Assembly (NCBI GenBank): GCA_045603745.1
Contig: JAZUMQ010000052.1
Location: 19,280-83,279 of the forward strand
Source of the DNA: Eubacteriales bacterium
GTDB taxonomy: Bacteria; Bacillota; Clostridia; Oscillospirales; UBA644
Reading direction: 5' to 3'
Length of the DNA: 64,000 nucleotides
The translations under genes were made by a program, and so were the position numbers. The notes beneath the pieces were generated by a model, which was given only the letters and a program-made list of their open reading frames with translations, made no database searches and was not told the DNA's origin. Below are positions 3,917 to 33,239 of this stretch, in pieces; position 1 is the first letter of the stretch, and each line of letters opens with the position of its first letter.

Positions 3917-3945
3917 TCAACAGTTGCACCGCAGTAGACAAAGAA
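3917..3945 (+). repeat. 29-bp module-boundary site, copy 1
   Basis: TCAACAGTTGCACCGCAGTAGACAAAGAA. Confidence 0.85.
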
Positions 3946-3977
3946 TAGACTTCACAGAAATGATCGAGTTTACTTTA

Positions 3978-4200
3978 TTGACAAAATACGGAAAATCTGT
4001 TATAATGAATATAAGTAAATAGTGACTTTAAGCTTTGGGATACTTACTTCGAAACTGACAGGCTCGTGGTAACTTCCGGCGGAAACGTTCTTATGGTCAC
4101 AGACTCGTCAAACGAGATTATGTCGTTATTTTTGCGTCTGTGATCATTTTATCGCAGACGCTCTTTTTGTCCTATTTGCTAATTTGAAATAGGAGGAAAC
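3978..4200 (+). promoter_or_regulatory. promoter plus attenuator-like 5' leader of the MATE gene
   Basis: TTGACA-17-TATAAT (3978-4006); terminator hairpin 4134-4168; alternative pairing strand 4095-4104; RBS-sequestering stem 4170-4194. Confidence 0.65.
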
Positions 4201-4204
4201 TGAT

Positions 4205-5530
4205 ATGTTTTCCAAACTCAAACTGTCGCTTGGCAGAATCAACTACAAGCTATTTCTCGCGCTTCTCGTTCTTGGGCTCGCGCCAACCGTTTACACCACC
4301 GTGCGCGTCTTCTTCCTCGGGCAGCTTCCCGGCGAATGGTCCTTTTCCATCGCAGGTCAGCTCTCTTGGGTGAACCTCATTTACGAGATCATAAACGAAG
4401 CCATCATCCTGCCGTTGTTCTACTTTATCGGCAAGGTCAAGGATGACAAGAGCGCTTTCTCAAACCGCGTGCGAACCGGTATGCTCCTCTCCCTCGGCAT
4501 CTATGCCATCCTTTCTGCCGTCATTATGATCTTCGCAGAACCGCTTCTCAACCTGATGGCAACCGATACGAGCATCATTGACGCTTCCGCATCCTACATA
4601 CGCATCGAGAGCATTGCAAACGTCTTCTCCATCCTCACGCAGTTTGCCCTCGTTGCTCTGGTAACGGTCAATAAGAGCAAATATCTTTACGCTCTCACGG
4701 TCGCAAAACTCGTGCTGTGCCTTGTGTCCGACACCTTCCTTGTTTCCACCTTGCCCATCTCCGCAAACCTCGGCGTAAACGGAATCGGTTATTCCAACAT
4801 CATCGTCAACGCTCTGCTTCTCGCCGTATCGCTGATGCTTCTTTCAAAAGAGAGCATCAAGGTGTTTGCAAAAGCCAAGCTCGATTTCGCTTGGACGAAG
4901 GAATTTGTCAAGATCGGCGGGATCTCAGGCGTGGAATCCCTCGTTCGCAACGTGGCATATATGGTAATGATCTCCCGTATGGTCAACGTCGTGGGCGAGC
5001 AAGGAACCTATTGGGTGGCAAACAACTTCATCTGGGGCTGGCTTCTTTTGCCCGTCCTGCAGCTCGGTGAGCTCATCAAGCAGGAAACCGCCACCGACAA
5101 GGAAAACGTTCGCAAAAACACGCTTGGCTACTTCGGCATCACAGCTATCGTTTCGGTTCTGTGGTGCGCGAGCATCCCTCTCTGGAAGCCCTTTATGACA
5201 AGCGTCCTGCAGTTTACCGACGTGGATAAGCTCTTTGAGCTGGTGCTCGTTCTCCTCGGCTTCTACGTTTTGTACGCCATCCAGAACGTCTTCGATTCGG
5301 TCTTCTACGGGCTCGGAAAGACGAACTATATGCTGTTCGAATCCGTGGTAACGAACACGATCTATTACGGCATTGCCTTCGTCCTTTACGTTACGGGCGT
5401 GTGGACGCCGACGCTCATCGGCATCGCTCTCCTCTTCGGCATCGGCAACGCCTTCGATAGCATCGTCTCCCTCGGCGCATTCGCATTCCTTCTCAAAAAA
5501 GAAAAGATCAACATTCTGAACGTCGAATAA
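4205..5530 (+). CDS. MATE-family efflux transporter
   Basis: 441 aa, about 12 hydrophobic segments, MATE-like FAEPLL..M....A.SYIRI pattern; strong AGGAGG SD. Confidence 0.75.
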   Translation: MFSKLKLSLGRINYKLFLALLVLGLAPTVYTTVRVFFLGQLPGEWSFSIAGQLSWVNLIYEIINEAIILPLFYFIGKVKDDKSAFSNRVRTGMLLSLGIYAILSAVIMIFAEPLLNLMATDTSIIDASASYIRIESIANVFSILTQFALVALVTVNKSKYLYALTVAKLVLCLVSDTFLVSTLPISANLGVNGIGYSNIIVNALLLAVSLMLLSKESIKVFAKAKLDFAWTKEFVKIGGISGVESLVRNVAYMVMISRMVNVVGEQGTYWVANNFIWGWLLLPVLQLGELIKQETATDKENVRKNTLGYFGITAIVSVLWCASIPLWKPFMTSVLQFTDVDKLFELVLVLLGFYVLYAIQNVFDSVFYGLGKTNYMLFESVVTNTIYYGIAFVLYVTGVWTPTLIGIALLFGIGNAFDSIVSLGAFAFLLKKEKINILNVE

Positions 5531-5583
5531 CCTTTATCCGCTGAGGAACACCTAATCCTCAGCGTATTATTTTATGTGCGCCG

Positions 5584-5612
5584 TCAACCGTTGCCCCGCA
5601 GTATACAAAGAA
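5584..5612 (+). repeat. 29-bp module-boundary site, copy 2
   Basis: TCAACCGTTGCCCCGCAGTATACAAAGAA. Confidence 0.85.
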
Positions 5613-5822
5613 AATCCGCAATCATTTCCATCATCAAGGCGCAGATGCATTAGCACACACATAATGGAAATAATCGTACCGAAATACTGTGACGAAAAAA
5701 CGAAAAATGCTGAAATCGTAGGATTTCTCCGTCGAAATCTATTGTAATTTGCCACAATTTGTGCTATAATGAATCTATGCTATAATGCTATGATTATATT
5801 TTAATTTATGAGGTATCATACA

Positions 5823-6041
5823 ATGGCTGCAAGCTATAAGAAATTGTTTAAACTTCTGATCGACCGCGATATGAAAAAGAAGGATCTTGCAAAGAAAGCA
5901 GACATTAGCATCGCCACTATTACTAAAATGGGAAAAGACGGCGCCGTTGTCAGCAGTGATGTTCTTGTAAAGATATGTACAGCTCTCGGTTGCACGATGG
6001 ATGATATTGTAGAAATCATACCCGAGAAGGAGGAAAACTGA
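5823..6041 (+). CDS. Xre/Cro-C1 HTH regulator (possible R-M controller)
   Basis: SYKKLFKLLIDRDMKKKDL...LVKICTALGC HTH pattern; directly precedes an MTase. Confidence 0.85.
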   Translation: MAASYKKLFKLLIDRDMKKKDLAKKADISIATITKMGKDGAVVSSDVLVKICTALGCTMDDIVEIIPEKEEN

Positions 6042-6042
6042 A

Positions 6043-7110
6043 ATGGAAACATTTAAGTTAGGCGAACTGTTCTGCGGCCCCGGTGGAATTGCGTGCGGAG
6101 CTCTAAGGGCAAAAAGCGATGACGGCTCCTTCACCATTGAGCATGCTTGGGCAAATGATTATGATGCGGATACATGCGAAACATATCGTAAGAACATCTG
6201 CCCCGAATCCCCCGAAACTGTACATTGCGGTGATGTGCGAGAATTAGATATTCAAAAGCTTGGAGAGATCACGGCCTTCTGCTATGGGTTCCCGTGCAAC
6301 AGCTTCTCTAATGTTGGTAAGCACCAAGGCTTCGAAAACGAGAAGTTTGGGCAACTCTACTGGTATGGTATCGAAGTGCTTAAAACATATCAACCCAAGT
6401 GGTTTGTTGCAGAAAATGTGTCAGGAATACGTTCTGCTGGCTCAGGTGATTTTGAAATAATCCTAAACGATATGCGTGCAGCAGGTTATAAATTGAATGT
6501 GCACCTGTACAAAGCGGAAGAATATGGCGTTCCGCAAACAAGACATAGAGTAATCATTGTTGGAATTCATGAGGATGAGTCTGTGAAATACAGAGTTCCC
6601 GATCCAGCGGTATATGCTAAGTGCGATGTAACCGCGAGAACTGCGTTGGCTAACATTCCCGAGAATGCTCCCAACAATGAAGTAAGAAAACTCGCTGATA
6701 AGGTTGTCAGAAGACTGTCATATATTAAGCCCGGTGAAAATGTATGGCAAGCAGAGGAAAGACTCGGTGAAGATTTCCCGCGCGAATTAAAGATCCATAC
6801 AAAAACCAAGATCAGTCAAATCTATCGCAAGCTTGACCCCGATAAACCAGCCTACACTGTAACAGCCGCAGGTGGTGGCGGTACGTTTATGTATCACTGG
6901 ACAGATCGAGAATTGACAAATAGAGAGAGAGCAAGAATACAAACCTTTCCCGATGATTATGAATTCGTCGGTAACTACAGCAGTGTGAGAAAACAAATTG
7001 GCATGGCTGTACCGTGCAAATTGTCTGAAGTGGTTATAACCGCTGTATTAAACAGCTTCGCAGGGATTGATTATCCTTGGATCAAAGCCAATTTGGAGGA
7101 AGATGAATGA
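6043..7110 (+). CDS. DNA (cytosine-5)-methyltransferase
   Basis: Motif I LFCGPGG, IV GFPC, VI ENV, VIII PQTRHR, IX-X RERARIQTFP / QIGMAV. Confidence 0.95.
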   Translation: METFKLGELFCGPGGIACGALRAKSDDGSFTIEHAWANDYDADTCETYRKNICPESPETVHCGDVRELDIQKLGEITAFCYGFPCNSFSNVGKHQGFENEKFGQLYWYGIEVLKTYQPKWFVAENVSGIRSAGSGDFEIILNDMRAAGYKLNVHLYKAEEYGVPQTRHRVIIVGIHEDESVKYRVPDPAVYAKCDVTARTALANIPENAPNNEVRKLADKVVRRLSYIKPGENVWQAEERLGEDFPRELKIHTKTKISQIYRKLDPDKPAYTVTAAGGGGTFMYHWTDRELTNRERARIQTFPDDYEFVGNYSSVRKQIGMAVPCKLSEVVITAVLNSFAGIDYPWIKANLEEDE

Positions 7111-8186
7111 TTCCAAAAATTGATGATATTACCGGAATCCCAACATTTATTACATCGGATTTTGATGAACCAGTTTTATATACGCCTGCGAGAACAGAGT
7201 TTTCGCGGCCTTGTTCGTCTTTGAAGATTGTTACTGCTTTTACGGATTGTGACCGTATATCTACTCATATGATCAAACTTGCGGAAGGCATGAAAAACAG
7301 CCGTCTGATTAAAGGCCTTTCGGTTGAAATCATACTTGGTATGACCAAGTCCAGCCTTTCTCAAAAGAAGCACGAAGATATCTGTCGTATGATTCGATTT
7401 CTTAATTCGTCCAAAGGAATGCCCAAAATTTCGTGCAGATATATTTGCCAAGGTCCGGAAGTGCATTCGAAAGTGTATATTTGGATATATCCGGATGAGC
7501 ATGTAGGCGACATGCCTTATATCGCTTTCTGTGGTTCTTTGAATTATACCATGAATGCTTTTTACAAGCGCAGAGAGTCTGTTAGCATGTGTAACTCTCT
7601 TGAGGCGTATTGGTACTATAAGAATCTTCTGCCCGATACAATTGATTGTTTTGATCCTTCAGTTTCTGAAAAATTGAAGAATGTTATCAACAACACCGCA
7701 GAAAATTTTGTTGAGCCGGATAACTCTGAAAAAGACTATCTTGTTTACGATAAGGAAACGCCCATCGATACGCTCAATGTTTCTCTTTTGAGAGCAGATG
7801 GCAGTGATACGGGATATGGCTCTGGTATCAACTGGGGCATCCGTAAAAACGGAACAAAGCGTGATCAGAATCAAGCCTATATTCCGTATAATCACAAAGA
7901 TAAAAAGGTAGGCTTTTTTCCGGATAGAGAAAATCCCGATGATGAAAACTGCCCGATGTTTAAGGTCATCACCAAAGATTTTGGATCTTTCCATATGCGA
8001 ATGGCACAGCAAGGAAACAAAGCCTTACACAGTGTAGAAAGTAACGCAATTTTGGGTGAATGGATTCGCAAAAGAATCGGGGCTCCTGCAGGTGGCTATG
8101 TTACCAAACAAATGTTGGAGCTCTATGGAAAGACTTATGTTACTTTCAGAAAGTATGAGGACGGTACGTATCTTTTGGATTTTTAA
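7107..8186 (+). CDS. NgoFVII-like PLD-family restriction endonuclease
   Basis: HSKVY and GSLNYT PLD motifs; C-terminal SGINWG...RDQNQAYIP; ATGA overlap with the MTase. Confidence 0.8.
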   Translation: MIPKIDDITGIPTFITSDFDEPVLYTPARTEFSRPCSSLKIVTAFTDCDRISTHMIKLAEGMKNSRLIKGLSVEIILGMTKSSLSQKKHEDICRMIRFLNSSKGMPKISCRYICQGPEVHSKVYIWIYPDEHVGDMPYIAFCGSLNYTMNAFYKRRESVSMCNSLEAYWYYKNLLPDTIDCFDPSVSEKLKNVINNTAENFVEPDNSEKDYLVYDKETPIDTLNVSLLRADGSDTGYGSGINWGIRKNGTKRDQNQAYIPYNHKDKKVGFFPDRENPDDENCPMFKVITKDFGSFHMRMAQQGNKALHSVESNAILGEWIRKRIGAPAGGYVTKQMLELYGKTYVTFRKYEDGTYLLDF

Positions 8187-8207
8187 TCGTTGAGTTGGAG
8201 AAAAATT

Positions 8208-9158
8208 ATGCCGAGTGTATGTAGTCTGTTTAGCGGAATAGGTGGAATTGACCTTGGCTTTATGCAAGCCGGGTTTGACATCGTATGGGCTAATGAAAAA
8301 GATGCCGCCGCTTGCAGAACCTATCGGCATAATTTAAAAGACTCTCCACTGGTAGAGGGTGATATTCATCAAATTCCGATTGAAAGTATCCCCAATGGGT
8401 TTGATGTTTTAACAGCGGGTTTTCCTTGCCAGCCGTTTTCCATCGCCGGCTTACAAAAAGGTTTCAAAGATAGAGATGGGAACCACTTTTTTCGAATAGC
8501 ACAGATTGTTGATATTAAACGTCCACCGATTGTATTTCTTGAAAATGTTCCTAATTTAATGGAACACGACAACGGAAAGACATTCCTCGTAATTTTTAAC
8601 GAACTAGCACAACTGGGATATTCGATATATTACCGAGTTCTTGCATCCAACGAATATGGAAACCTTCCGCAAATTAGAAAACGCATTTATATTGTTGCGA
8701 TTCGTGAAGATATGGACAATCGTCTATACCAATATCCAGAGCCGATAGAACTCACTTTGAAATCCAGCGACATTATCAATCGCTCCGTAAAGCAACATGA
8801 CATTTACTACTATACAGAAGGAAAAATGTATGATCGATTAGTTGCACACATGAAGGATCGCAAAGCAATTTACAGAATAACTGACACAGAAGTGCGCTGG
8901 ACGAAGAATCAAATGTGTCCAACCCTTACTGCAAATATGGGAACACACAAAGATAGAGTTCATGTCGTATGGGACGACTACGGAATACGAAAGATGACGT
9001 TGAGAGAAGGTCTGGACTTTCAAGGCTTTCCGAAAGAATTTTATTTTCCAAATACAATAACCATTGATGATGCGTATAAGCAAATCGGAAATACAGTTTC
9101 GGTGCCCGTAATCTCAAGACTCGCTACCAAAATCAAAGAAGTGCTTATGGGGGAATAG
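8208..9158 (+). CDS. second DNA (cytosine-5)-methyltransferase
   Basis: LFSGIGG, GFPCQPFS, ENV, PQIRKR, TLTANMG TRD, QIGNTV. Confidence 0.95.
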   Translation: MPSVCSLFSGIGGIDLGFMQAGFDIVWANEKDAAACRTYRHNLKDSPLVEGDIHQIPIESIPNGFDVLTAGFPCQPFSIAGLQKGFKDRDGNHFFRIAQIVDIKRPPIVFLENVPNLMEHDNGKTFLVIFNELAQLGYSIYYRVLASNEYGNLPQIRKRIYIVAIREDMDNRLYQYPEPIELTLKSSDIINRSVKQHDIYYYTEGKMYDRLVAHMKDRKAIYRITDTEVRWTKNQMCPTLTANMGTHKDRVHVVWDDYGIRKMTLREGLDFQGFPKEFYFPNTITIDDAYKQIGNTVSVPVISRLATKIKEVLMGE

Positions 9159-9161
9159 AGT

Positions 9162-9797
9162 ATGTGGAATAGAAACATTACTGGTTTAGATGCGGAGGGT
9201 ACTTTTAGAAGCCTTAACGGCGCCGCAGATGAAAATGTTTTTATAGGAAAAGCAAGCAAGGCAGGCTTCTTTTGCTTCTTCAAGGTGTGGCGCGATATGC
9301 CATATGATGCTGTGCTTGATTACAAACATATTCTTTACCGTGTTGAGGTTAAAGGTTCTTCATCTGGTACATATAACCTCACTCGTGGAGGCAGATCCGG
9401 CGCACAGATTGACCGTCATGCAGAAAACAGAACCCGAAGAATTGAACGAGGAGATTGTGATTTTGTTGTTTGCGTTGATAGTAAGAACGGGGATTGTTTC
9501 ATATTGCCGGTTGATATTTTGGATATAACAAATCGTCAAAATTTTGGAGCAAGGGCGCTCGAACCTTTTAAGGAAAAATGGCAGTTGTTTATTCATAACG
9601 ATGCTACTCGCCTTACCGGAGCACAAACTCGTGATGGGCTTTTAGCATTATCGTTGACGGAGCTTCAATCTATTGCAACTCGCATTGGGGCAATTGTGCC
9701 TGCAGGAGATTTTCGACCCAAGGGCACAACAGGGCTCAGAATAAGCGATGAAAAAGAAAAAACAATACTTGCGATTTGGTACAAACTTTGTGAATAA
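9162..9797 (+). CDS. PD-(D/E)XK-type endonuclease, possible partner of the second MTase
   Basis: PYDAV...RVEVKG catalytic pattern; 3 bp downstream of the MTase. Confidence 0.6.
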   Translation: MWNRNITGLDAEGTFRSLNGAADENVFIGKASKAGFFCFFKVWRDMPYDAVLDYKHILYRVEVKGSSSGTYNLTRGGRSGAQIDRHAENRTRRIERGDCDFVVCVDSKNGDCFILPVDILDITNRQNFGARALEPFKEKWQLFIHNDATRLTGAQTRDGLLALSLTELQSIATRIGAIVPAGDFRPKGTTGLRISDEKEKTILAIWYKLCE

Positions 9798-9812
9798 GAA
9801 AGGAATATAAAA

Positions 9813-10049
9813 ATGGCACAGATAGACATCAAAACTATTGAAAGATTATCCAAAGAAAGAAATACAATACACGAAAAAGTGTATGCTACATATTCAACAT
9901 TTGACAGCTATGGTGAACATTATGTTCAGATCGACACCTATGGCCGTAGCGATAGAGAACAGCCAGGAAAAATTAGTCAGTCGATACAGTTGGATAAAGA
10001 AACGGCTTCCTACTTGGTTGATCTACTTAAGAGAGAGTTTGATCTCTGA
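9813..10049 (+). CDS. small conserved restriction-associated protein
   Basis: YVQIDTYGRSDR..GKISQSIQLD pattern, recalled as a family near restriction loci (not searched); SD AAGGA. Confidence 0.5.
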   Translation: MAQIDIKTIERLSKERNTIHEKVYATYSTFDSYGEHYVQIDTYGRSDREQPGKISQSIQLDKETASYLVDLLKREFDL

Positions 10050-10144
10050 TATGACTGAGGTAGTCGCTGTTATGGTATCACTGAAAGAAATCAAATAAAA
10101 GACGCATTAAATAACTCTCTATGATGAGAATTAAGGGGAATAAA

Positions 10145-11245
10145 ATGAAAAGTTTAAGTAATGAAATAGCAAAACTTTTTAATATTGCAACAATTGATAA
10201 AACTCAGAAAATTTGGTTCTTTAGAACCAATGGTGGTGCATATTATCATGATTATTGTATTAATAATTTCATTGGCTTAGGATGGGATAAAATTGATAAA
10301 CAATTGATACTGTCAGACAGGTCTCCTGAGACAAAAAAAGAAATTATAGAGGATATCTATCCAGATGAGAAGCGTCCTGGATTGATATTGGGTCAAATGA
10401 ATACTTTCTATAATAAAATGCATTTAGGGGATTTGGTTTTGATTCCTTCTGAAGGAGGGAAAGAAGTATCCATTGGTGTATTAGGGGATTTTGTAGATGA
10501 AATCTATCACTTGGAGAATGAAACTGAATATCCTCAATGCGAATATATTCACAAAAGAAGAGTTGATTGGATTAAAAAGGTGGATTTATATCAAGATGTA
10601 TATCTGTTTAGAGCATTACGCGGACAACAGACTATCTCTGATATAACGGATTGCGCAGGCTTGGTACTTAGGAACTTATATCCAGTGTATATTTCTAATA
10701 ATTCTTTGCACTTGACATTGAAAAAAACGTCGGATGTAGATTATTCATTACATACGAATGTTTCACTGTGTTCATCTATTATTGCTATTTCTGAGGAGAT
10801 TTCCCGGATATATAATGGAGAAAATTTTGAAGATTCGTTGAAAATCAAAACTGCTGTGGGTTCCCCTGGATTTATAGAGATAATTGCTGATTTAATACCC
10901 GAAGCCACAATTGCCATTGGTGTTATCTTCAATTATATTGTTGGTAAAATTAAATCTGATGGCTCTGCTAGCGGGCTCCTTGGGGTGTTTGGATCAGTCA
11001 ATTCTCTTATAAATGACCGCACAAATAGAAAAAAGATAGATGCTGAGACAGAAAGAATTAAAGCAGAAACAGAAAAAATCAAAGCAGAGACACAATTGCT
11101 GAAGCAACAATTGTCCGCACCGGATCTCAAAAAAAATGAAAGTTCGATTATGAACATACAAACAGAATGCAACAATATTGTCAAAGAATCTTTAGCGGCT
11201 GGAATTGTTTGTGAGCTTCAGTCGCCTGAAGATAAAGTTAGTTGA
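10145..11245 (+). CDS. hypothetical protein with Mrr/McrB-type N-terminal reader-like domain and C-terminal coiled coil
   Basis: IGLGW...FYNKMHLGDLVLIP...RRVDW pattern; C-terminal KIKAETE repeats. Confidence 0.55.
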   Translation: MKSLSNEIAKLFNIATIDKTQKIWFFRTNGGAYYHDYCINNFIGLGWDKIDKQLILSDRSPETKKEIIEDIYPDEKRPGLILGQMNTFYNKMHLGDLVLIPSEGGKEVSIGVLGDFVDEIYHLENETEYPQCEYIHKRRVDWIKKVDLYQDVYLFRALRGQQTISDITDCAGLVLRNLYPVYISNNSLHLTLKKTSDVDYSLHTNVSLCSSIIAISEEISRIYNGENFEDSLKIKTAVGSPGFIEIIADLIPEATIAIGVIFNYIVGKIKSDGSASGLLGVFGSVNSLINDRTNRKKIDAETERIKAETEKIKAETQLLKQQLSAPDLKKNESSIMNIQTECNNIVKESLAAGIVCELQSPEDKVS

Positions 11246-11287
11246 CTTTTTGTTATTACATCATAAAATTTATGAGGAAGTCTAATT

Positions 11288-11896
11288 GTGTATAAGAACA
11301 AAGATACAGGAAAACTGATTGCTTTTGACGGTCCTAATGGTGCAGGAAAATCCACACTAATAAGGGCGGTACAAGCTAGGTTGTCAGAAATGAACATTAA
11401 TGTGCACGTAACAAAAGAACCGAGTGATTCGAAAATTGGAACGTTTACACGTAATGTTGCAGAATTGTTTTCTGGCAATGCTTTGGCCTGTTTAGTGGCG
11501 GCAGATAGATATGCTCATGTCGAAAGAGAGATTTTGCCGCAATTAAAACAAGGAACAATTGTTATTACGGACCGATATGTTTTATCCTCACTAATATTAC
11601 AACCTATGGATGGCGTTGATATTGATTTTATAGAAAAAATAAATAACGAGATTGTTCTACCTGATCTGCAGATTGCAGTTTGGGCAAATGATGAAATTTT
11701 GCAAAAACGTCTATTAGAAAGAGACAATCTTACGCGATTTGAGAAAAATAATAGATCGTTTGAGGAATTGGAGAATATGGAAAAAGGAGTTCGTATTATC
11801 CAAGAATGGGCGGTGCCTGTTGTCAATGTTTTTAATGATAGTGATTTAGAAAAAAATGTTGCTCTTGTAGTAGAAAACATATTGTCTATAATATAG
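11288..11896 (+). CDS. tmk: thymidylate (dTMP) kinase family protein
   Basis: IAFDGPNGAGKST P-loop, KEP, DRY motifs; island-borne paralogue. Confidence 0.85.
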   Translation: MYKNKDTGKLIAFDGPNGAGKSTLIRAVQARLSEMNINVHVTKEPSDSKIGTFTRNVAELFSGNALACLVAADRYAHVEREILPQLKQGTIVITDRYVLSSLILQPMDGVDIDFIEKINNEIVLPDLQIAVWANDEILQKRLLERDNLTRFEKNNRSFEELENMEKGVRIIQEWAVPVVNVFNDSDLEKNVALVVENILSII

Positions 11897-11925
11897 GTTA
11901 AACATTACATTGGAAGGGAGACGCT

Positions 11926-13254
11926 ATGAAAGAAGTTTTTTATTTAATTAATTCTCCGTTGTTTTTAGATAAAACAATTAATGAAGACTCTTTGCCGCCA
12001 TTAGGGCAAGGCTATATTGCGACCAGTTTGAAGAATAGTGGCATTGATGTTTCCTTAATTGATTGTGTTAAAGAAAAGATAACAGCCTTGGAAATAATAA
12101 ATAAGATTAATAGTGATCGTCCCAAGTATGTCGGTATTAATATTTTCACACAAAACTACGAAATAGTGAAAAGCATTATCGAAAGCATAACAGTGCAATG
12201 TATACTATTTATAGGCGGACAAGCAACTAAGTTTCTTTATCAGGATATCATAAATTGGCGTACAAATAATGAATGTTTTGTTATTATTGGAGAGGGTGAA
12301 TATATAATACCTACTATATGCATGAAAACATGCAAACAGAAACCGATATTGTGCGAAAACAATATTACAGTTTATGTGGTTGATAAAGATTCGGGGTACT
12401 ATCCTCGAGATATATCAGCCATTAAGCTTGATAGGACATTTTTTAAAAACGAACTCATGGAGAATCATTATGGGGAACAGGAGGTTGCCATAATAACATC
12501 TAGGGGATGTATTTTTAATTGTGCTTTTTGCGGTGGCGCAAGGAGTCTAAACGCTGAAATAGAACCTAGGATAAGAGGACAGCAAAGTATAGAAAATGAA
12601 ATATCTGACTTGTTAGCATTATATCCCAAGTTACAGAGCGTGCGAGTTCTTGACGATTTGTTTTTGCGTTCCAAAAATAGTATTCAAATTGCCATTAACG
12701 TTTTCTCTAAATATCCAAGAATAACATGGCGTGGAATGGCACATGTTCTATCCATAAAAAACGCTATTGATTATTTAAATGATCTTAAAAAAAGCGGATG
12801 CAAAGAATTATTTATTGGCATAGAATCTGGATCCCCAAGAATCAGAAATAAAATAAACAAACAGGGTTCGTGTGAAGATGTACTGTTTGTAGCCAAAAAA
12901 ATATTGGAAGCAGGTATAGATTTAAAAGGATATTTTATATTGGGTTTTCCTGACGAGGATGAGAGCGATTTTCGTCTTACATTGAATCTAGCACTAGCCA
13001 TAAAGGGTCTCGCAGACCAAGCCAATGCTACATTCAGAACTAGTGTATTTCAATTTAGACCTTATCATGGAACAAAACTATATAATGAATTGATAGAAAA
13101 TGGCGTTGAGGTTAACGAGTGTAAACCCAATGACGATATTACTTCAATGATAGGTCGAGGTTCATTTAATTTTTCTTCAGGGAACTATAGCTTAGAAAAT
13201 AACGAAGTGTTAAATCGTTATATTGATGCCACGCAAAGGTTGAAAGAAATATGA
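11926..13254 (+). CDS. B12-binding radical SAM protein
   Basis: PPLGQGYIA cobalamin-domain start, GEGE, TSRGCIFNCAFC (CxxxCxxC), GIESGS, FILGFP. Confidence 0.9.
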   Translation: MKEVFYLINSPLFLDKTINEDSLPPLGQGYIATSLKNSGIDVSLIDCVKEKITALEIINKINSDRPKYVGINIFTQNYEIVKSIIESITVQCILFIGGQATKFLYQDIINWRTNNECFVIIGEGEYIIPTICMKTCKQKPILCENNITVYVVDKDSGYYPRDISAIKLDRTFFKNELMENHYGEQEVAIITSRGCIFNCAFCGGARSLNAEIEPRIRGQQSIENEISDLLALYPKLQSVRVLDDLFLRSKNSIQIAINVFSKYPRITWRGMAHVLSIKNAIDYLNDLKKSGCKELFIGIESGSPRIRNKINKQGSCEDVLFVAKKILEAGIDLKGYFILGFPDEDESDFRLTLNLALAIKGLADQANATFRTSVFQFRPYHGTKLYNELIENGVEVNECKPNDDITSMIGRGSFNFSSGNYSLENNEVLNRYIDATQRLKEI

Positions 13255-13811: not shown

Positions 13812-13836
13812 TAAATAATATTTTGGGAGAGTACAT

Positions 13837-16638: not shown

Positions 16639-16642
16639 TCGG

Positions 16643-22240: not shown

Positions 22241-22269
22241 TCAAATACTGCGCCGCAGTAAACAAAGAA
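22241..22269 (+). repeat. 29-bp module-boundary site, copy 3
   Basis: TCAAATACTGCGCCGCAGTAAACAAAGAA. Confidence 0.85.
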
Positions 22270-22356: not shown

Positions 22357-22374
22357 TATTTCTCGGAGGTGCTT

Positions 22375-24173: not shown

Positions 24174-24386
24174 ATGAAAAAATCAAACATCAAAACATTC
24201 GAGGAGCTTCCGTACTTCATCAATGCGCAGGAGCTCGCAGATATTCTCGGCATTGCAATTTCGTCCTGTTACGAGTTGATGCATGAAAAAGATTTTCCGA
24301 CGATCCGTATCGGGAAACGTCTTGTCGTTCCCAAAGACAAATTTTTAATCTGGGTTAACGAGAACACCAAAGGAGGTATTAGATGA
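24174..24386 (+). CDS. excisionase-family HTH protein
   Basis: ELADILGI...FPTIRIGKRLVVP. Confidence 0.85.
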   Translation: MKKSNIKTFEELPYFINAQELADILGIAISSCYELMHEKDFPTIRIGKRLVVPKDKFLIWVNENTKGGIR

Positions 24387-25403: not shown

Positions 25404-26585
25404 TCATTCAAGTGACTGAACGTAATACGGTTTGTTGTCTCTCAGAACAGCATAAATAATGTTGGTCATTTTTCGTGTCGCGTGACCGATAACATTCATA
25501 TACGGTTTACCTTCGGCAAGTTTCTTTTGCAGAAATGCTTTCATATACGGATCATGCATAACTGCAGATACAGAGGCCATCCAAATTGCACGGCGAAGAT
25601 ATGGTGATCCACGCTTAGACATATGATTACGCGTCCCGGTGAATTCTCCCGACTGCTTGACAGTCGGATCCAGACCGGCAAATGCCGCCAGTTTAGCTGC
25701 CGAATCAAACCGGTGGATATCTCCGATTTCACTGAAGATTGTTGCACCGAGTGCCGGTCCAATCCCGGGAATCGTTGTAATGCAGACATCAAACTTGGAG
25801 AAAAGCTCAGCAATCTTAGCTTCGAGTTCCGCGATCTGCTGCTCTGCAAAACGGATGTGTTCCATATGATGCTTGATCAGAAGTCCCATCGTGTTGTATT
25901 CCAGAACGATTCCAAAAGAGTTCTCGGCAAGGTTGCGGATCTGCTTTGCCTTTTCCTCACCGAAACGATTGCGACTTGCCTGGGCAACCAACTGCGTCAA
26001 TTTTTCTGTGTCCAGCGACAGGATTTCTTCCGGTGTGGAATAATTGCGCAGAATCTCTGAGGAAGTCAGGCCAAAAATGTCGGTAAACAGTCTTTCATAT
26101 TCCGGGAATGACTGATCCAGCAGAGCGATTACTTTGTGCTTCAGGTCGGCAGTCATATCTACGATGAACAGTCTTGCACGGCAAAGCTCTCTCAGCTCGT
26201 ACAAATCGGACGGCGGCATCCCGCCTTCTGTGTATCTGCCAAAGCGTATAACCTCGGCAATGATGAATGAATCGTGTTCATCGTTCTTGATTTGGCGGAT
26301 ATACATTCCGCGCAGTGCATTTGATTGAATCGGGTTTAGTACGTGTACGGTATAACCGTGCTTTTTCAGATTGGAGTATAACGCTAACCAGTAGTGGCTT
26401 GTCGATTCCATTCCGATAGTGAAGTCAGAAGGATTCGGACTGATGGCATTCAGAATAGCTGTAAATTTTCTGAATCCATCCGCATCGTTCTTGAAGTTGA
26501 ATGCTTTGTGTACGAGCGCGCCGGAATCATCGATAACAATGGCTTCATGACTACGCTTAGCGATATCCACACCAACAATAAACAT
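25404..26585 (-). CDS. IS110-family transposase/recombinase
   Basis: GVDIAK, GMEST, KNDEHD (DEDD); TIPGIG, AGLDP..QSG, SKRGSPYLR. Confidence 0.95.
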   Translation of the reverse strand: MFIVGVDIAKRSHEAIVIDDSGALVHKAFNFKNDADGFRKFTAILNAISPNPSDFTIGMESTSHYWLALYSNLKKHGYTVHVLNPIQSNALRGMYIRQIKNDEHDSFIIAEVIRFGRYTEGGMPPSDLYELRELCRARLFIVDMTADLKHKVIALLDQSFPEYERLFTDIFGLTSSEILRNYSTPEEILSLDTEKLTQLVAQASRNRFGEEKAKQIRNLAENSFGIVLEYNTMGLLIKHHMEHIRFAEQQIAELEAKIAELFSKFDVCITTIPGIGPALGATIFSEIGDIHRFDSAAKLAAFAGLDPTVKQSGEFTGTRNHMSKRGSPYLRRAIWMASVSAVMHDPYMKAFLQKKLAEGKPYMNVIGHATRKMTNIIYAVLRDNKPYYVQSLE

Positions 26586-26624
26586 GCTCAAAATTTCCTT
26601 TCATTCAGATTACGGACATCGTCC

Positions 26625-27656: not shown

Positions 27657-28832
27657 GTGATGCCAAAGAAACGTCCTGCGGGCGACGGAATGGTTCGTCA
27701 GAAGAAGCGCGGTCAATGGGAAGCGCGCATCGTCGTCGGTCACAAGGATGACGGCAAGCCGATCTACCGTTACGTCTACGGCAAAACGCAGAAGGAGGTG
27801 CTCGATAAGCTTCATCAGCGCATCGAGGACTACCGCGGTGTGGAGCTGACCGAGGACAGCAAGATGACGCTGGGTGAGTGGCTTGACAAGTGGCTGAACG
27901 AGTATATGCTTTTCACCATCCGCGAGAGCACGTGGAAGGCTTATGAAACCACCGTGCGCCTTCACATCAAGCCTTACCTTGGCGACAAGCAGATCGCCTT
28001 CGTCACCACCGCCGACGTGCAGAGGATGTACAACAAGCTCAAGCGTAGCGGACGGTCGGAAGCGCATCCAATCCACGGACACAAGCTGTCCGACAGCTAC
28101 GTGCGTAAGATCCATATGATGCTTCACGAAGCGATGGACACGGCAGTGAAGGAACGGCTCATCGTGAAGAACCCGACAAACGGCACGACGATCCCGAAAA
28201 CCAACTATCCGCCCAAGCAGATCCTCACCGATGCACAGCTTGAAAAGTTTATTGCCGTGGTAATGGAGGACGAGCTGTGGCGCGACTTCTTCTACACCGA
28301 GCTGACAACGGGACTTCGTCGCGGCGAGATCTGCGGTCTGCGGTGGACTGACTTCAACGAGTCGACAGGACACCTCAAGGTGTCGCGCACGGTGCTTGTA
28401 AAGACGGGCGGAGGACTGACCTGGGGCGACACCAAGACCGAAACCGGTATGCGAACGATCCTCCTGCCACCGAGCACCGCCGAGATGCTTCGGGAGCGGA
28501 AGAAAAATTCATACAGCGAGTGGATCTTCCCGAATCTCTACAAGCCCGAGCAGCCCCTCTATCCCGGCTCAGCCTATAATCGTATGAAGGTGCTCTTAAA
28601 GAAAGCGGAGCTTCCGCTGATCCGCTTCCACGATCTGCGCCACACCTTCGCCACCCACGCGCTGACGGGCGGTGTGGATGCCAAGACGCTGTCAAAGATC
28701 CTCGGTCACACCAACGCAAGCTTCACTCTCGACACCTACACCCACGTTACAACCGATATGCAGAAGCGTGCGTCAAAGATCGTGGGCGGGTTCTTGGATG
28801 ACTTGATAATCAAGGAGGATGACAATGGCTAA
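27657..28832 (+). CDS. tyrosine integrase 1
   Basis: Arm-binding N-terminus, TGLRRGE, FHDLRHT, LGH, YTH. Confidence 0.95.
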   Translation: MMPKKRPAGDGMVRQKKRGQWEARIVVGHKDDGKPIYRYVYGKTQKEVLDKLHQRIEDYRGVELTEDSKMTLGEWLDKWLNEYMLFTIRESTWKAYETTVRLHIKPYLGDKQIAFVTTADVQRMYNKLKRSGRSEAHPIHGHKLSDSYVRKIHMMLHEAMDTAVKERLIVKNPTNGTTIPKTNYPPKQILTDAQLEKFIAVVMEDELWRDFFYTELTTGLRRGEICGLRWTDFNESTGHLKVSRTVLVKTGGGLTWGDTKTETGMRTILLPPSTAEMLRERKKNSYSEWIFPNLYKPEQPLYPGSAYNRMKVLLKKAELPLIRFHDLRHTFATHALTGGVDAKTLSKILGHTNASFTLDTYTHVTTDMQKRASKIVGGFLDDLIIKEDDNG

Positions 28833-30285
28833 ACGCAGGAAGAATGGGAAAGGGTTACTCCGACAGCGCAAGGACGGACGGTGGGAAGGTCGAGTCGTCG
28901 TCGGCTACGATGAGAAAGGTCTGCCGAAAACGAAAAACGTACTTGCCAAGACCAAGACTGAGTGTGCCGAGAAGCTGGAAAAGCTTCGCGAGGAGTACCG
29001 ACCGCCGAGCACACGGTGCAAGCCGGATATGCTCTTCGGCGACTATATCGACTTCTGGTATGAAAACTTCTGCAAGCCCGCCGTCCGCCCGCTGACTCAG
29101 CAAAACTACGAGAACCGCATCTACGATCACATCATTCCCGAGATTGGAAAGATCCCGCTGAACAAGCTGTCGCAGAACGATCTGCAGCAGTTCTACGCTC
29201 GGCTGAAGAAGAACGGACGGAGGATTCGCGTGGAGCAGTATGGTCCCGAGCTGGCCGACCGAATGGTGCGCGCCTGCCACGCAAGCTGCCGCTCTGCGCT
29301 GGAAAAGGCGGTGGAGGACGGACTCATCCGTACCAATCCCGCCATCGGCTGTAAGCTCCCGCCGAAGAAGGCCCACGAGATGCAGGTGCTGTCCCGCGAG
29401 GATCTCGGGCGGTTCCTGAAGCAAGCCAAGGAGGATGGCTTCTATGAATTCTTCCTGATGGAGCTTGGCACGGGGATGCGCCGCGGCGAAATGCTTGGAC
29501 TACAATGGGATGACCTCAACTTCCGCACGGGCGAGCTTCACGTCTGCCGTCAGGTGTGTGCCGTGGACGGAAAGCTGGAAATATCCGTGCCGAAAACGAA
29601 ATCGTCGGTGCGCACCATTGTGCTTCCGCCATCGCTTGTGGCGGTGCTGAAGGAGTATAAGAAAACGGTGGATTCGAGATGGATGTTCCCGTCACCGCAA
29701 AACTCCGACTCGCCGAGATATCCCACGGGAACGAGCGATATTCTCGGAAGGATCCTTCGCCGTGCGGGATGTAAGCGCGTCCGCTTCCACGATCTGCGCC
29801 ACACATTCGCGACCATGGCGCTGGAAAACGGAATGGACGTCAAAACCTTGTCGGCAACCATCGGTCACGTGTCTGCGGCGACCACGCTTGATATATACAG
29901 CCATATGACTGATACGATGCAGATGCAGGCGGCGGTGAACATTGACCGCAAGATCGGCGGAACGGACGCGCAGATGCCCGAGGTAAAGCAAACACACGAG
30001 CAGAGCACGAACACGCCCGTAAACGCAATGTACGAGCCTACAGAGCCCCATCCCGAGCCCGTGCCGAGAAAGATACGCAAGTCGGGCACCGGATGCATCT
30101 ATCAGATCAATGATCACCTCTGGGAAGGCAGCTTCTATCCGAGACTGCCAAACGGCAAGCGGAAGAAGTTCAACGTCTACGCCGAAACGCGAGAGCAGTG
30201 CGAAATAAAACTCGCCGAAATGATCGCCGAAAAGAAAGCGGAGATTGCAGAAGAAAAGGCAAAACGAAAAGAGGGCGCCGAGTAA
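28825..30285 (+). CDS. tyrosine integrase 2 with an extra C-terminal arm-binding-like domain
   Basis: TGMRRGE, FHDLRHT, IGH, YSH; C-terminal RKSGTGCIYQ...WEG...VYAETREQC repeats the N-terminal domain pattern. Confidence 0.95.
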   Translation: MAKRRKNGKGLLRQRKDGRWEGRVVVGYDEKGLPKTKNVLAKTKTECAEKLEKLREEYRPPSTRCKPDMLFGDYIDFWYENFCKPAVRPLTQQNYENRIYDHIIPEIGKIPLNKLSQNDLQQFYARLKKNGRRIRVEQYGPELADRMVRACHASCRSALEKAVEDGLIRTNPAIGCKLPPKKAHEMQVLSREDLGRFLKQAKEDGFYEFFLMELGTGMRRGEMLGLQWDDLNFRTGELHVCRQVCAVDGKLEISVPKTKSSVRTIVLPPSLVAVLKEYKKTVDSRWMFPSPQNSDSPRYPTGTSDILGRILRRAGCKRVRFHDLRHTFATMALENGMDVKTLSATIGHVSAATTLDIYSHMTDTMQMQAAVNIDRKIGGTDAQMPEVKQTHEQSTNTPVNAMYEPTEPHPEPVPRKIRKSGTGCIYQINDHLWEGSFYPRLPNGKRKKFNVYAETREQCEIKLAEMIAEKKAEIAEEKAKRKEGAE

Positions 30286-30293
30286 CGGCGCCC

Positions 30294-30322
30294 TCAACTG
30301 TTGGTATGCAGTAAACAAAGAA
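30294..30322 (+). repeat. 29-bp module-boundary site, copy 4
   Basis: TCAACTGTTGGTATGCAGTAAACAAAGAA. Confidence 0.8.
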
Positions 30323-30466: not shown

Positions 30467-31513
30467 ATGAGAACATTTAACTACTCAATAATTAGCGAAC
30501 AAAAATGGGATTCGGAGCTGCTTGGCTTGATAGCTGCCATTTACAAGGAAGCCGGAAAGCAAGAGATGTATCTCAAGCAACGCCCGGAAGAGCTTGAAAA
30601 GCTCGTTGAGATTGCAAAGGTGCAGAGTACCGAAAGTTCCAATGCGATTGAAGGTATCGTTACGACCAACACGAGAATCAGGCAGATCGTAGTGGATAAG
30701 ACCACGCCCAAAAATAGAGATGAGCAAGAGATTGCCGGATACCGTGATGTATTAAGTATCATCCACGAGAGCTTTGATGCCATCCCGATCACTCCTAATT
30801 ACATTCTGCAACTCCATAAAATTCTGTATAGCCATATGAATAACCCTGCGGCAGGCAGAACAAAGAGCGTACAGAATTACATTAGCGCAACCTATCCCGA
30901 CGGTAGTACGAGAACGTTGTTCACTCCGCTCAATCCGCTTGAAACGCCTACCGCACTCGAAAGCATATGTAACGAATTTAATCGAGTAATCGGTAATAAT
31001 GAGTTAGAGCCGCTCATTGCGATTCCGATATTCATCCACGATTTTCTTTGCATCCATCCGTTCAATGACGGAAACGGCAGAATGAGCCGTTTGCTCACAA
31101 CTCTGCTCCTTTATAGAAGCGGGTTCTATGTTGGAAAATATATATCGCTCGAAGCAAAGATAGCGGTGAATAAGGACTTGTACTACGATGCGCTTGCCAA
31201 AGCGCAGAACGGTTGGCACGAAGGAAATGCCGATGCCGTTCCGTTCATCAAATATCTGCTTGGCACGATACTTGCAGCCTATAAGGATTTTGATGACAGG
31301 TTTGCGCTCGTGGAAACAAAGTTGCCGGCACTTGAAACTGTTCGCCGTGCAACGTTGAATAAAATCGGCAGATTCTCAAAGCAAGATATCCGAGAGCTTT
31401 GTCCTTCACTAAGCATAAGCTCTATCGAAGGTGCGCTTCGCAAGTTGGTTGCTGAAGGGGAAATCAAGCGTGAGGGTAACGGAAAGAATATTAAGTATTT
31501 CAGACTCAAATAA
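30467..31513 (+). CDS. Fic family protein with C-terminal HTH
   Basis: HPFNDGNGRMSR motif; SNAIEG; own TTGACA-17-TATAAT promoter at 30410-30438. Confidence 0.9.
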   Translation: MRTFNYSIISEQKWDSELLGLIAAIYKEAGKQEMYLKQRPEELEKLVEIAKVQSTESSNAIEGIVTTNTRIRQIVVDKTTPKNRDEQEIAGYRDVLSIIHESFDAIPITPNYILQLHKILYSHMNNPAAGRTKSVQNYISATYPDGSTRTLFTPLNPLETPTALESICNEFNRVIGNNELEPLIAIPIFIHDFLCIHPFNDGNGRMSRLLTTLLLYRSGFYVGKYISLEAKIAVNKDLYYDALAKAQNGWHEGNADAVPFIKYLLGTILAAYKDFDDRFALVETKLPALETVRRATLNKIGRFSKQDIRELCPSLSISSIEGALRKLVAEGEIKREGNGKNIKYFRLK

Positions 31514-31560
31514 AAATTCAGTCCGGATGCAATAAAACTGTTTGAGGAAGAATAAAGTAC

Positions 31561-31589
31561 TCAACGATTGCTCCGCAGTAAACAAAGAA
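31561..31589 (+). repeat. 29-bp module-boundary site, copy 5
   Basis: TCAACGATTGCTCCGCAGTAAACAAAGAA. Confidence 0.85.
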
Positions 31590-31715
31590 AGGCAAAACGA
31601 AAAGAGGGCGCCGAATAGGTGCCCTCTTTTGTGGCATTAAATCGAATTAATACTACAAATGTATTGACAATTGAGCGGAAGTATGGTATAATTAGGGTGC
31701 AAAGGCGGTGAAGTT

Positions 31716-32165
31716 TTGAAAACGTACAGTGTAAAAGAAATTGCAGATCTGCTTAACACGAATCCGGAAACAGTTCGAAGATGGATTCGGGATAAGAAAC
31801 TGGAGGCAACAATTGAGTCAAAAAAGGGTGGACATATAGTATATGAGTCAGCTCTCCATACTTTTTTGAAAACATCTCCAAAATACGCATCAATAGCAAG
31901 TACGGCACTTATGTCAACCGTAATGGTTGGAGGTTTGATAGCGCAAAAAATCATTGACATCGAACAGTTGAAAAAAGCACGAATTTCCGATGCGGATATA
32001 ATCAAATTTCTAAAATCCGAAATAGGGTCTCGGGAGGCTTCAATTAAAAGCAAAGAGGATACCATATCACAGCTCAATATGCAGATCAGGTCTGATCAAA
32101 TACAGATCGAGGCTTTTCAGCAAATGATAGATGCACTATGTGCAGGGAAAGGAGAAACTCAATGA
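31716..32165 (+). CDS. excisionase/MerR-like HTH protein with coiled coil
   Basis: YSVKEIADLL..NPETVRRWIR; promoter TTGACA-17-TATAAT at 31664-31692. Confidence 0.75.
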   Translation: MKTYSVKEIADLLNTNPETVRRWIRDKKLEATIESKKGGHIVYESALHTFLKTSPKYASIASTALMSTVMVGGLIAQKIIDIEQLKKARISDADIIKFLKSEIGSREASIKSKEDTISQLNMQIRSDQIQIEAFQQMIDALCAGKGETQ

Positions 32166-32941
32166 AGAACGATGGAAAAAAGGTTGTGAACATTGGCGAC
32201 CGAGTTACATACTTTTACATAAAAAATATCAAGAAATGGATGTTTTGTCCGGCATGCAAAAACGGAAAAATGAGCTTTAATAAGAAAAACTCGCATTGGG
32301 TATGCGAGGATTGTGGCTATAGTTTCTCAGAGGAGTATTTCTTGGATGATTGTGTTTTCTGGTTCTGCGATGAGTGCGAAACATATCTCAACAACCAAGA
32401 AGGATTTGACCGTCATGCTTCGAAGCATATTTGCCGAAACTGTGGTTATGAAAACGATACTACATTTGAAAATATCAAAGGAACTTGCTCCGATTGCGGG
32501 AAAATGCTTCCCGACCCGGACGCGACTCTTTGCGCGGACTGCAGACAAGCTCGCAGAGAGAAAGCAAAGCAATGGCTCATTACCGCAGGTAAAGTTGCGG
32601 CAGGTATTGCCGTTGTAGTGGGAGCTGCTGTTCTTGCCGCCTCGTCAGCCGAGGATGATACTTCTACAGATTATACACCTCTCCCCGATGATGACAGTAG
32701 TGATGACGAAGTATATGGATTGGGAGAAGGTAAATATCCTACTTGTAAAACTTGCGGGGCAAAAATGACTGGCTTCGATGGTTGGGCGTGGTATACTTGT
32801 CCTGAATGTGAGGACAAAGTTAGAATTATCGAAGGAAAAGAAACATGGTACGATGAAATTTTCGGAAAAGGCAAAAAAGAGCATCACTCTGATTTCGAAC
32901 TCGCTGATTTTTGCCGTGGCGGCGATTTAACTGAAGACTAA
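32162..32941 (+). CDS. multi-Zn-ribbon membrane-anchored protein
   Basis: Eight CxxC pairs, one central hydrophobic helix. Confidence 0.7.
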   Translation: MKNDGKKVVNIGDRVTYFYIKNIKKWMFCPACKNGKMSFNKKNSHWVCEDCGYSFSEEYFLDDCVFWFCDECETYLNNQEGFDRHASKHICRNCGYENDTTFENIKGTCSDCGKMLPDPDATLCADCRQARREKAKQWLITAGKVAAGIAVVVGAAVLAASSAEDDTSTDYTPLPDDDSSDDEVYGLGEGKYPTCKTCGAKMTGFDGWAWYTCPECEDKVRIIEGKETWYDEIFGKGKKEHHSDFELADFCRGGDLTED

Positions 32942-32956
32942 TAGGGAGGTCTGATT

Positions 32957-33199
32957 ATGGGAAGAATGTCTGCACGCTTTGTTGGACAAATGGTTGGAAT
33001 GAGTACAGAGTGGGTTTATGGCATGTGGAAAGATATGGGGCTTGTCATCAAAGACAAGTTTGGCGATTGGGCATTGACCGAAGTTGGAAGAAGTATCGGC
33101 GGAAGAATGTCAAAAAGCAATCATTGTCCTGTGCCCACATTTGACTTTGCAGTAATCGAAAAAATGATGATGGATTTTTATAATAAACATCGAAAGTAA
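32957..33199 (+). CDS. small hypothetical protein
   Basis: GGGAGGT SD; operonic with the upstream genes. Confidence 0.65.
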   Translation: MGRMSARFVGQMVGMSTEWVYGMWKDMGLVIKDKFGDWALTEVGRSIGGRMSKSNHCPVPTFDFAVIEKMMMDFYNKHRK

Positions 33200-33210
33200 T
33201 GTGGTGACAT

Positions 33211-33239
33211 TCAAAAATCACACCGCAATAAACAAAGAA
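33211..33239 (+). repeat. 29-bp module-boundary site, copy 6
   Basis: TCAAAAATCACACCGCAATAAACAAAGAA. Confidence 0.75.

Follow-up and report, generated by a model that had tools for sequence, protein, structure and literature searches.

Arm-binding domains of tyrosine integrases of the IntTn916 subgroup are described at the N-terminus in the cited part of the subgroup classification (PMC8138268). For Tn1549 Int, the cited sections of PMC5871717 report strand exchange across a non-homologous region of 5-7 nt, with conserved boundary bases and few base-specific contacts. The 64,000-nt stretch of an Eubacteriales genome that is analyzed here at its full length (the window; contig JAZUMQ010000052.1, positions 19,280 to 83,279) contains an island inserted in a tRNA-Pro gene that encodes two tandem tyrosine integrases, Int1 and Int2, and carries six copies of a 29-bp motif between its gene modules. 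In the reading that we favor, with somewhat better than even confidence and from sequence comparison, foreign DNA enters this family of tRNA-targeting islands by being joined to them at the motif, likely through an island-encoded Tn916-type integrase for which the partner DNA would require little or no homology. Comparison of related islands gives good support to a joining role of the motif; the enzyme and the chemistry of joining are what we infer from it. The motif is likely an undescribed site of gene capture by an island integrase: no description was found in the literature searched, which did not include supplements and most subscription journals, and the ICEscreen/FirmiData or PMC8138268 tables may list the islands. 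Below, G and L numbers denote genomes and loci.

The motif and its two joints

All six copies reported in a first-pass annotation of the window are present on the + strand, at 3917..3945, 5584..5612, 22241..22269, 30294..30322, 31561..31589 and 33211..33239 (copies 1 to 6; 0 matches in 100 shuffles), and all are intergenic, as had been claimed, according to the list of open reading frames (ORFs). The proposed consensus pattern fits four of them exactly, whereas those at 30294 and 33211 each carry three mismatches. Copy 1 is the outer left one, ~335 bp inside the left end of the island, a position similar to that in G016, G018, G035 and G060; copy 3 lies left of the island core and shares its downstream DNA, with other upstream DNA, with L055; copy 6 is the terminal copy before the replacement tRNA gene. 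The claim that no full copy exists outside the element also stands: in G000, the genome carrying the window (1.67 Mb, 93% complete), a weight matrix built from the six copies finds only these, with scores of 37-45 bits compared to 18.6 for the next site, and a matrix retrained on relatives gives the same picture (over both matrices, 31-45 for the six copies and ~19 for the best other site). Genome-wide abundance in core regions, the observation named in advance as contradicting a recombination site, is thus not seen in G000.

Occurrence in relatives was assessed in two sets of Int1 loci, 80 from GTDB genomes, on which the matrix was refined, and an independent held-out set of 118 from metagenome and viral collections. 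The motif is found in 57 of the 80 GTDB loci, with 102 copies on the integrase strand versus 2 on the opposite one (1 match in the reversed-sequence control), and in 80 of the 118 held-out loci, including 63 of the 72 loci of at least 10 kb, with 121 copies versus 1 (0 in the control); the sole opposite-strand copy of the held-out set sits behind an inverted Int2 end. These copy numbers are a floor because the ungapped matrix misses a one-base-shorter form of the conserved block that recurs in several clades (L044, L052, L053, L056, and L157-L225 near the tRNA). Across 41 whole genomes, 0 to 10 copies are present in each, mostly clustered; a genome pattern allowing three mismatches was unusable, given that it matched 45 of 46 genomes and often matched the control. 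In a class-wide sample, 18 of 300 other genomes carry the motif and 7 of 299 carry Int2 (five candidates per genome scored), and all six Int2 islands that were fetched contain the motif, directly behind Int2 in five. Several families of the class have the motif in almost the same form; it is not found with two solo relatives of these integrases (L273 and L274). In the plasmid and phage collections, no annotated element has this integrase pair, the best plasmid match being 39%; the phage collection holds three unannotated scaffolds with matches of 55-63%, none of them circular and two with the motif.

The synteny breaks that the first-pass annotation expected at the motif are found there, and gene-content breakpoints coincide with it to the base. 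In all-against-all alignments, motif offsets 20-39 account for 218 of 1577 ends (~4 expected) and offsets -10 to 9 for 62 of 1205 starts (~3 expected), both counts being inflated by related pairs. Among 180 distinct contexts, the partner changes at the motif in 16 of the 19 multi-member upstream classes and in 16 of the 21 downstream classes; fewer classes vary in the held-out set (4 of 18 upstream and 3 of 12 downstream) because many of its loci are near-identical.

The conserved unit is a 20-bp block, motif positions 9-28 with the consensus TGCNCCGCAGTAAACAAAGA, that is joined to variable DNA at both edges. The right joint lies directly after CAAAGA, and the incoming DNA starts with one to five A's; pairs with the same upstream DNA are 0.99 identical at position 28 and at background level from position 29-30 on. 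For example, behind the Int2 hairpin, a single upstream class of 20 sites that includes copy 4 of the window meets 18 different downstream neighbors, and a rare block variant with G at position 11 occurs in 25 of the 26 Int2-hairpin sites compared to 9 of 253 others. Native right targets are recognizable as well, in that the DNA behind the block in one locus mostly follows GA or CA, blockless, in others. Such targets include the 3' end of Int2 together with its hairpin (30255..30295, +), where the point after an A-rich run at ~30255 serves as a degenerate joining point. This explains why a duplicate of the Int2 3' end with its hairpin (31588..31617, +) stands at the front of the trio module of the window, starting exactly at the right edge of motif 5, why L025, in which Int2 is joined directly to the trio module with no motif between them, lacks motifs 4 and 5 and the Fic module, and why three genomes (G033, G075 and L007) have units of 66-68 bp, composed of the Int2 end, its hairpin and the motif, immediately after another motif.

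At the left joint, the incoming DNA ends with TCA and five free bases, giving TCA-N5-TG as the product, in which a short inverted pair encloses a non-homologous spacer. In the gut clade, 31 terminal sites before the replacement tRNA represent 19 unrelated upstream classes; T, C and A at positions 1-3 are each kept in 18 of the 19, 17 different 5-mers occupy positions 4-8, and 12 of the classes have an identical sequence at positions 9-28. A native left target, the gene end CTA-N5-TT, is present in seven loci and is joined to the block at that spacer in G051. The pdif-like arm-spacer-arm site with one central crossover that had been proposed from the window is not supported, there being two joints, one within positions 4-8 and one after position 28.

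The fixed geometry of the left joint bears on two alternatives. Under the first of these, the block would do no more than bind a protein (the shared Xis-like or HTH_36 protein, or a relaxase, e.g., MobL), and nicking or illegitimate recombination at the edges of the bound protein would create the joints. The right joint, a single sharp point with almost no downstream consensus, is compatible with this possibility, as is the presence of the motif in islands that have unrelated integrases and different arm repeats but share the Xis-like and HTH_36 genes; furthermore, MobL relaxase genes are present in 5 and RHH genes in 16 of 61 family loci. However, TCA at a fixed distance of five bases in unrelated DNA (18 of 19) is not expected of random repair, and MobL is absent from most islands and was not found in G000, where oriT was not searched for. 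Binding alone is an unlikely explanation. Under the second alternative, a host Xer-like tyrosine recombinase, or that of a helper element, would act on the motif in the way XerCD acts on pdif. Such an enzyme fits a motif that hardly differs between islands with different integrases or among several families of the class, and G000 encodes an XerC-like protein; but Xer-type exchange requires a matching spacer, whereas that of the left joint is non-homologous, all copies are direct with none inverted, and no motif-like chromosomal copy was found in the 93% complete G000, in which dif itself was not located. We regard this alternative as distinctly improbable.

The sequences around the copies explain why a regulatory role might be considered. 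The five promoters proposed behind the copies are present (matches of 12/12 at 3978, 30410 and 31664, 11/12 at 22310 and 10/12 at 5742), and of the three hairpins proposed in front of them, those at 5539-5564 and 30271-30295 are flagged by a terminator scan, whereas that at 22207-22232 is visible in the sequence but unflagged. In the relatives, hairpins accompany the joints in 33-35% of flanks compared to 9-15% in shuffled sequences, which helps account for the self-contained character of the modules. With five of the six window copies preceding a promoter and a strict promoter pattern located downstream in 29 of 279 contexts compared to 5 upstream, the motif could be a transcription factor site or promoter-associated element that merely lies between modules. 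This explanation is very unlikely, being largely refuted by the base-precise breaks at both edges and the free spacer inside; besides, many copies precede terminators or convergent genes, the distance to promoters ranges from 33 to 130 bp, and the LexA-like repressor gene of the window is present in few loci.

The distribution of cargo indicates how modules move. Among 50 motif-flanked cargo segments of 0.3-9 kb, homologs in another genome exist for 15; there, the motif is at both ends of one, at one end of 12 and at neither end of two. The latter two are the MATE and trio modules of the window, which elsewhere are followed by a motif through a different join. The Fic module is an additional two-ended case, shared by the window and L011, with 5.4 kb extra inside in L011, and in the gut clade a left-type joint bounds the cargo on the right, while its left side shows no consensus. 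Accordingly, the first-pass proposal that modules move as whole two-ended cassettes does not hold as a rule, and one-ended capture describes the shared cargo better because most of it is bounded by the motif at one end. A strict cassette system, with a site at each module end, movement of whole modules and a single crossover point, could produce the 66-68 bp units that directly follow another motif, the Fic module that ends at motifs in both the window and L011, the four copies of G065 that are identical across the spacer, and the one downstream piece that occurs behind three different upstream classes in five genomes. It does not agree with the 1:12:2 distribution of the shared segments, with the large gut clade, where only one copy lies between Int2 and the tRNA, or with the existence of two different joints, and is in our assessment unlikely. 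Under one-ended capture, site-by-site movement of finished units would be a second, rarer event.

Candidate enzymes and a possible mechanism

Int1 (27657..28832, +, 391 aa) and Int2 (28819..30285, +, 488 aa) are 38% identical paralogs with intact catalytic residues, and the R-K-H-R-H-Y set is invariant in both, in alignments of 40 and 33 sequences. In the integrase tree, they form sister groups with modest support (84/88), and the tree does not separate their roles. The structure model of Int2 (mean pLDDT 72), which has its best fold matches to Tn1549 Int, predicts a three-strand/helix arm-binding fold at residues 12-59 and again, after a disordered linker, at residues 426-485, as well as a beta-stranded insertion in the catalytic domain (strands 245-249 and 252-256). 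The N- and C-terminal arm-binding-like domains are 37% identical over 52 residues; the C-terminal one (window 30094-30273) is found in 182 database proteins at E 1e-6 and has no Pfam match. For Int1, the N-terminal arm-binding domain is assigned by alignment over residues 1-372 only, not by a model. By the arm-binding domain and the catalytic set, and for Int2 also the beta insertion of the model, both proteins are of the IntTn916 type. The left joint bears the signature of Tn1549 Int, and the right joint does not.

Tracing of motif-positive genomes that lack Int2 identified a second island family, at tRNA-Trp(CCA), with a single integrase that is 23-28% identical to Int1 and Int2 (L284, L292, L319-L330 and L336). 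This integrase is present in 7 of 300 genomes and also in 5 of 26 genomes with the integrase pair; a search of viral contigs for it gave only distant matches. The tRNA-Trp islands share the Xis-like and HTH_36 genes with the integrase-pair islands and have the same layout, an anticodon-loop split and a replacement tRNA-Trp (e.g., G134, G250 and G346), but different arm repeats. In 9 of the 12 genomes examined, the motif is found in them at the same positions and in the same orientation. The unit of hairpin and motif behind the Trp-type integrase is followed by three kinds of downstream DNA in four sites and, in G157, is repeated 40 kb apart. Because the same motif occurs in islands with one distant integrase, the enzymes named below are candidates.

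These observations are compatible with a mechanism in which a block-bound protein would probably position the integrase, and the integrase would recombine one block edge with a degenerate target in the chromosome or in another element. What fixes the other end of the cargo would then be a second motif, a terminator-side A-run or ordinary recombination. Exchange between two motif copies would shift finished units and extend arrays, as may have happened with the 66-68 bp Int2-end units and the Fic unit, and the tRNA att sites, with a different core and arm repeats of their own, would serve to move the island as a whole in a separate reaction. The first candidate for the enzyme at the motif would be Int2, which has an additional DNA-binding domain and would act in trans on islands that lack it. 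A close second would be a shared Xis-like or HTH_36 protein that recruits the integrase of each island, and a third option is an enzyme encoded outside the islands.

Several observations weigh against joining by an island integrase. The support is all comparative, and neither a reaction nor a circular intermediate has been observed; moreover, the class counts overstate the number of independent events because of the relatedness among many class members. No A-N5-T symmetry like that of the left joint is seen at the right one, so that one chemistry may not explain both. A predicted back-to-back junction of blocks occurs 0 times in 3.1 Mb (with overlaps), and the prediction that TCA-N5-TG stays behind the Int2 hairpin is weakly borne out, by 10 of 65 block-less loci compared to 26 of 325 background windows. 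Five Trp-type genomes that were tested have no full-length Int2, two of them holding a solo relative, and given that there are motif islands without Int2, this protein would have to act in trans. Finally, two weaker copies (score 26; G058 C4 26938 and 48592), each between hairpins, lie in a housekeeping-like region, and two copies flank a 37-kb carbohydrate block in G234, which is without the integrase pair.

Some more specific models were set aside. A capture platform made of two back-to-back blocks was not seen in 3.1 Mb, and the integration of whole foreign circles at the left joint found weak support. The possibility that the motif is a variant of the island arm repeat, with which it shares a CAAA-ended 11-mer, was dropped because the tRNA-Trp islands have different arm repeats and the same motif. 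Junction lists inspected by eye contained no recognizable empty site, where DNA from upstream of one motif would directly adjoin DNA from downstream of another.

A more far-reaching version of the favored reading, which we put forward tentatively as a minority possibility, is a self-contained gene-capture machine of gut Clostridia that would comprise a duplicated Tn916-type integrase with an additional DNA-binding domain and a 20-bp block acting as two outward-facing half-sites, take up entire transcription units from DNA of any origin, use targets of 2-3 bases near terminators and serve islands in trans, with an exchangeable tRNA-targeting module. If so, it would be an integron equivalent for Bacillota that is able to create its own cassettes; to our knowledge, the creation of cassettes is unexplained for integrons. 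More generally, rapid uptake and swapping of genes by defence islands is mostly unexplained outside integrons and tRNA-end accretion, and capture is directly testable here because hundreds of public sequences locate the joint to the base and candidate enzymes lie next to it. The motif also provides a search handle, the 1-5 kb beside it being a rich place for new defence genes in gut Clostridia, and an integrase with one fixed 20-bp site and almost unconstrained targets would have appeal as a tool.

Organization and gene content of the island

The island cuts the host tRNA-Pro gene in the anticodon loop and supplies a complete replacement, a layout that recurs in many relatives. The 3' half of the host tRNA-Pro(TGG) gene (3538..3582, -) contains the att core TCCCAAA of the anticodon loop at 3576-3582, the left end of the island, and the att core at 33553-33559 with the host 5' half (33553..33590, -) forms the right end. 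The anticodon stem of the 3' half pairs with this 5' half and not with the full tRNA, and both halves carry the 7-base core, so that the island spans 3576 to 33559, ~30 kb. The full tRNA-Pro(TGG) gene at 33272..33347 (-) is element-borne and is neither the host gene nor the right end. Arm-type tandem repeats, the putative arm sites of the integrase, are located at 3699..3718 (+; 2 copies in the window, 0 in shuffles) and inside the right end at 33382..33401 (+), and are kept near both island ends in relatives. A host promoter (33640-33668) lies right of the island, and an Rfam scan of 3400-35200 finds tRNAs only.

The element tRNA and the att region vary as a module (L019, L022 and L032 right of tRNA-Pro; G134, G250 and G346). 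The variation includes the Pro anticodons TGG, CGG and GGG, an extra tRNA-Val (L079, L080, L204 and G070) and duplicated segments of arm repeat or 5' half. In a region of G084 (L109:10797), the DNA that follows an arm-type repeat reappears directly behind the motif 1 kb on.

The composition of the ends also bears on the possibility that the copies are leftover att sites of tandemly inserted elements, that is, accretion of cis-mobilizable elements (CIMEs). Although tRNA-end accretion is common in Firmicutes according to the cited part of PMC5704250, the motif contains no tRNA sequence and is unlike both the att cores and the arm repeats, as the first-pass annotation had held with regard to the att sites; the copies are not att duplicates, and the same motif is present in tRNA-Pro and tRNA-Trp islands. 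CIME accretion is accordingly the least credible of the alternatives, with hardly any probability left to it.

The constant core of the island family consists of the Xis-like gene, the HTH_36 gene, Int1 and Int2. The Xis-like HTH_17 protein (24174..24386, +) is common to the tRNA-Trp islands and is present in 56 of the 61 integrase-pair loci with at least 5 kb upstream; the HTH_36 winged-helix protein (24776..25204, +), found in 57 of the 61, is 52% identical to its tRNA-Trp island counterpart. In the window, the core also contains an inserted IS110-family transposase (25404..26591, -) and is preceded by a LexA-like S24 repressor (22369..22995, +) that is not constant in the family. In L003 and L062, a motif precedes the Xis-like gene; at this place (24131-24165) the window has an unrecognizable remnant followed by the same downstream DNA. 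With its integrase and att sites, the island family appears to be of the integrative mobilizable element (IME) type, the relaxase having probably been lost in most members.

The contents ascribed to the enclosed modules in the first-pass annotation are upheld. The MATE-family transporter module (4205..5530, +) is also found in G050 and G053, where its left side is motif-free and its right side is joined to another motif copy. The defence-rich block (6043..20918, +) encodes two C5 methyltransferases, an NgoFVII-type nuclease, a PD-(D/E)XK protein, a UvrD helicase-nuclease, an N6/N4 methyltransferase and AbiH, along with PDC-S02 and PDC-M51-like proteins. Within it, the NgoFVII-type nuclease gene lies between those of the two C5 methyltransferases and is followed by the PD-(D/E)XK protein gene (6043-9797), and thymidylate-kinase-like, B12 radical-SAM and UDG-like genes stand in a row (11288-13811), the first two weakly matching PADLOC PDC-M51B and PDC-M51A, respectively. 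Right of Int2 are the SoFic-like Fic module (30467..31513, +), both ends of which are common to L011, and the trio of HTH_17, zinc-ribbon and 80-aa proteins (31716..33199, +). Across 100 loci, the region between Int2 and the tRNA holds 170 ORFs in 139 families. Most of the 129 cargo representatives that were scanned have no NCBIfam match at E 1e-20; the remainder comprise several known anti-phage types, with matches to a retron Ec67-type protein, Drt2- and Drt3-like reverse transcriptases, SLATT, restriction enzymes and methyltransferases.

Elsewhere in the window, a 128-bp direct repeat (95%) covers the 3' parts of two tRNA-Leu genes 23.8 kb apart (34886-35067 and 58727-58911). G000 further encodes two mutually similar 352-aa phage-type integrases on C12 and C27 (L346 and L347), and its XerC-like gene is located on the contig of the window.

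Comparison with described systems

The likenesses and differences below refer to the cited parts of the respective publications. With regard to its ends, the island resembles elements with tRNA-dependent lysogeny (PMC10865867): there is a short core in the tRNA gene, the host tRNA is not rebuilt, and a complete tRNA of the same isotype is carried on the element. Unlike those elements, however, it is a non-phage island, and the likeness concerns the island ends rather than the motif. Pipolins are similarly tRNA-integrated platforms with a conserved core, often two integrases and variable defence cargo (PMC11551731), but no piPolB is present here, and the cited part of their description does not mention an internal capture site.

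Tandem tyrosine recombinase genes are also characteristic of the MTnPi 'Tyr duo' IMEs, the targets of which have a short motif around five free bases (PMC5704250), and of SEs, GInts, RIT and Tn554 (PMC10214605). In all these elements, the sites are the two element ends, whereas here the motif is internal and repeated, the ends are tRNA att sites, and the two integrases are paralogs (38% identity). The three- or four-gene organization of SE, GInt, RIT and Tn554 is not seen, Tfp, Srap and TnpC not having been searched for with profiles. CIMEs differ in that their internal repeats are att copies.

Accessory modules bounded by ~29-bp sites recall XerCD and pdif (PMC9771954). In contrast to pdif, the motif is not a site of XerC and XerD arms around a central spacer of 6-11 bp, its center being conserved, no chromosomal twin was found in the 93% complete G000, and the spacer of the left joint is non-homologous. 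Inversely oriented flanking sites, typical of pdif modules, are not what is found here, as the copies lie on one strand (102 versus 2 and 121 versus 1).

The likeness to integrons (PMC8618304) consists in same-orientation sites between unrelated genes, in a variable tandem array beside the recombinase gene and in defence-rich cargo. Unlike integrons, the islands have no IntI and no hairpin attC, the cargo has its own promoters and mostly one-ended sites, there are two kinds of joint, and cassettes do not behave as whole units with constant ends. With the IntI profile TIGR02249, Int2 scores 48, compared to a cut-off of 265, and Int1 has no match at E 1e-8. A fold similar to attC was rejected for the motif, given that 0 of 120 motifs fall below -10 kcal/mol and the complement of the right end is present upstream in 3 of 120.

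The closest likeness is to Tn916 and Tn1549 (PMC8138268, PMC5871717), with which the islands share the N-terminal arm-binding domain, the fold of Tn1549 Int, a 5-base non-homologous spacer, conserved boundary bases and degenerate targets. They differ from Tn916 and Tn1549 in having one 20-bp block that is directly repeated inside the element and joined at both edges, a left joint of the form A-N5-T instead of T-rich/A-rich, and two tandem integrases, one of which has a second, C-terminal arm-binding-like domain. Taken together, the system falls outside integrons, pdif modules, CIME accretion and the three- or four-gene tandem-recombinase elements, its outcome being integron-like and its left joint Tn916-family-like.

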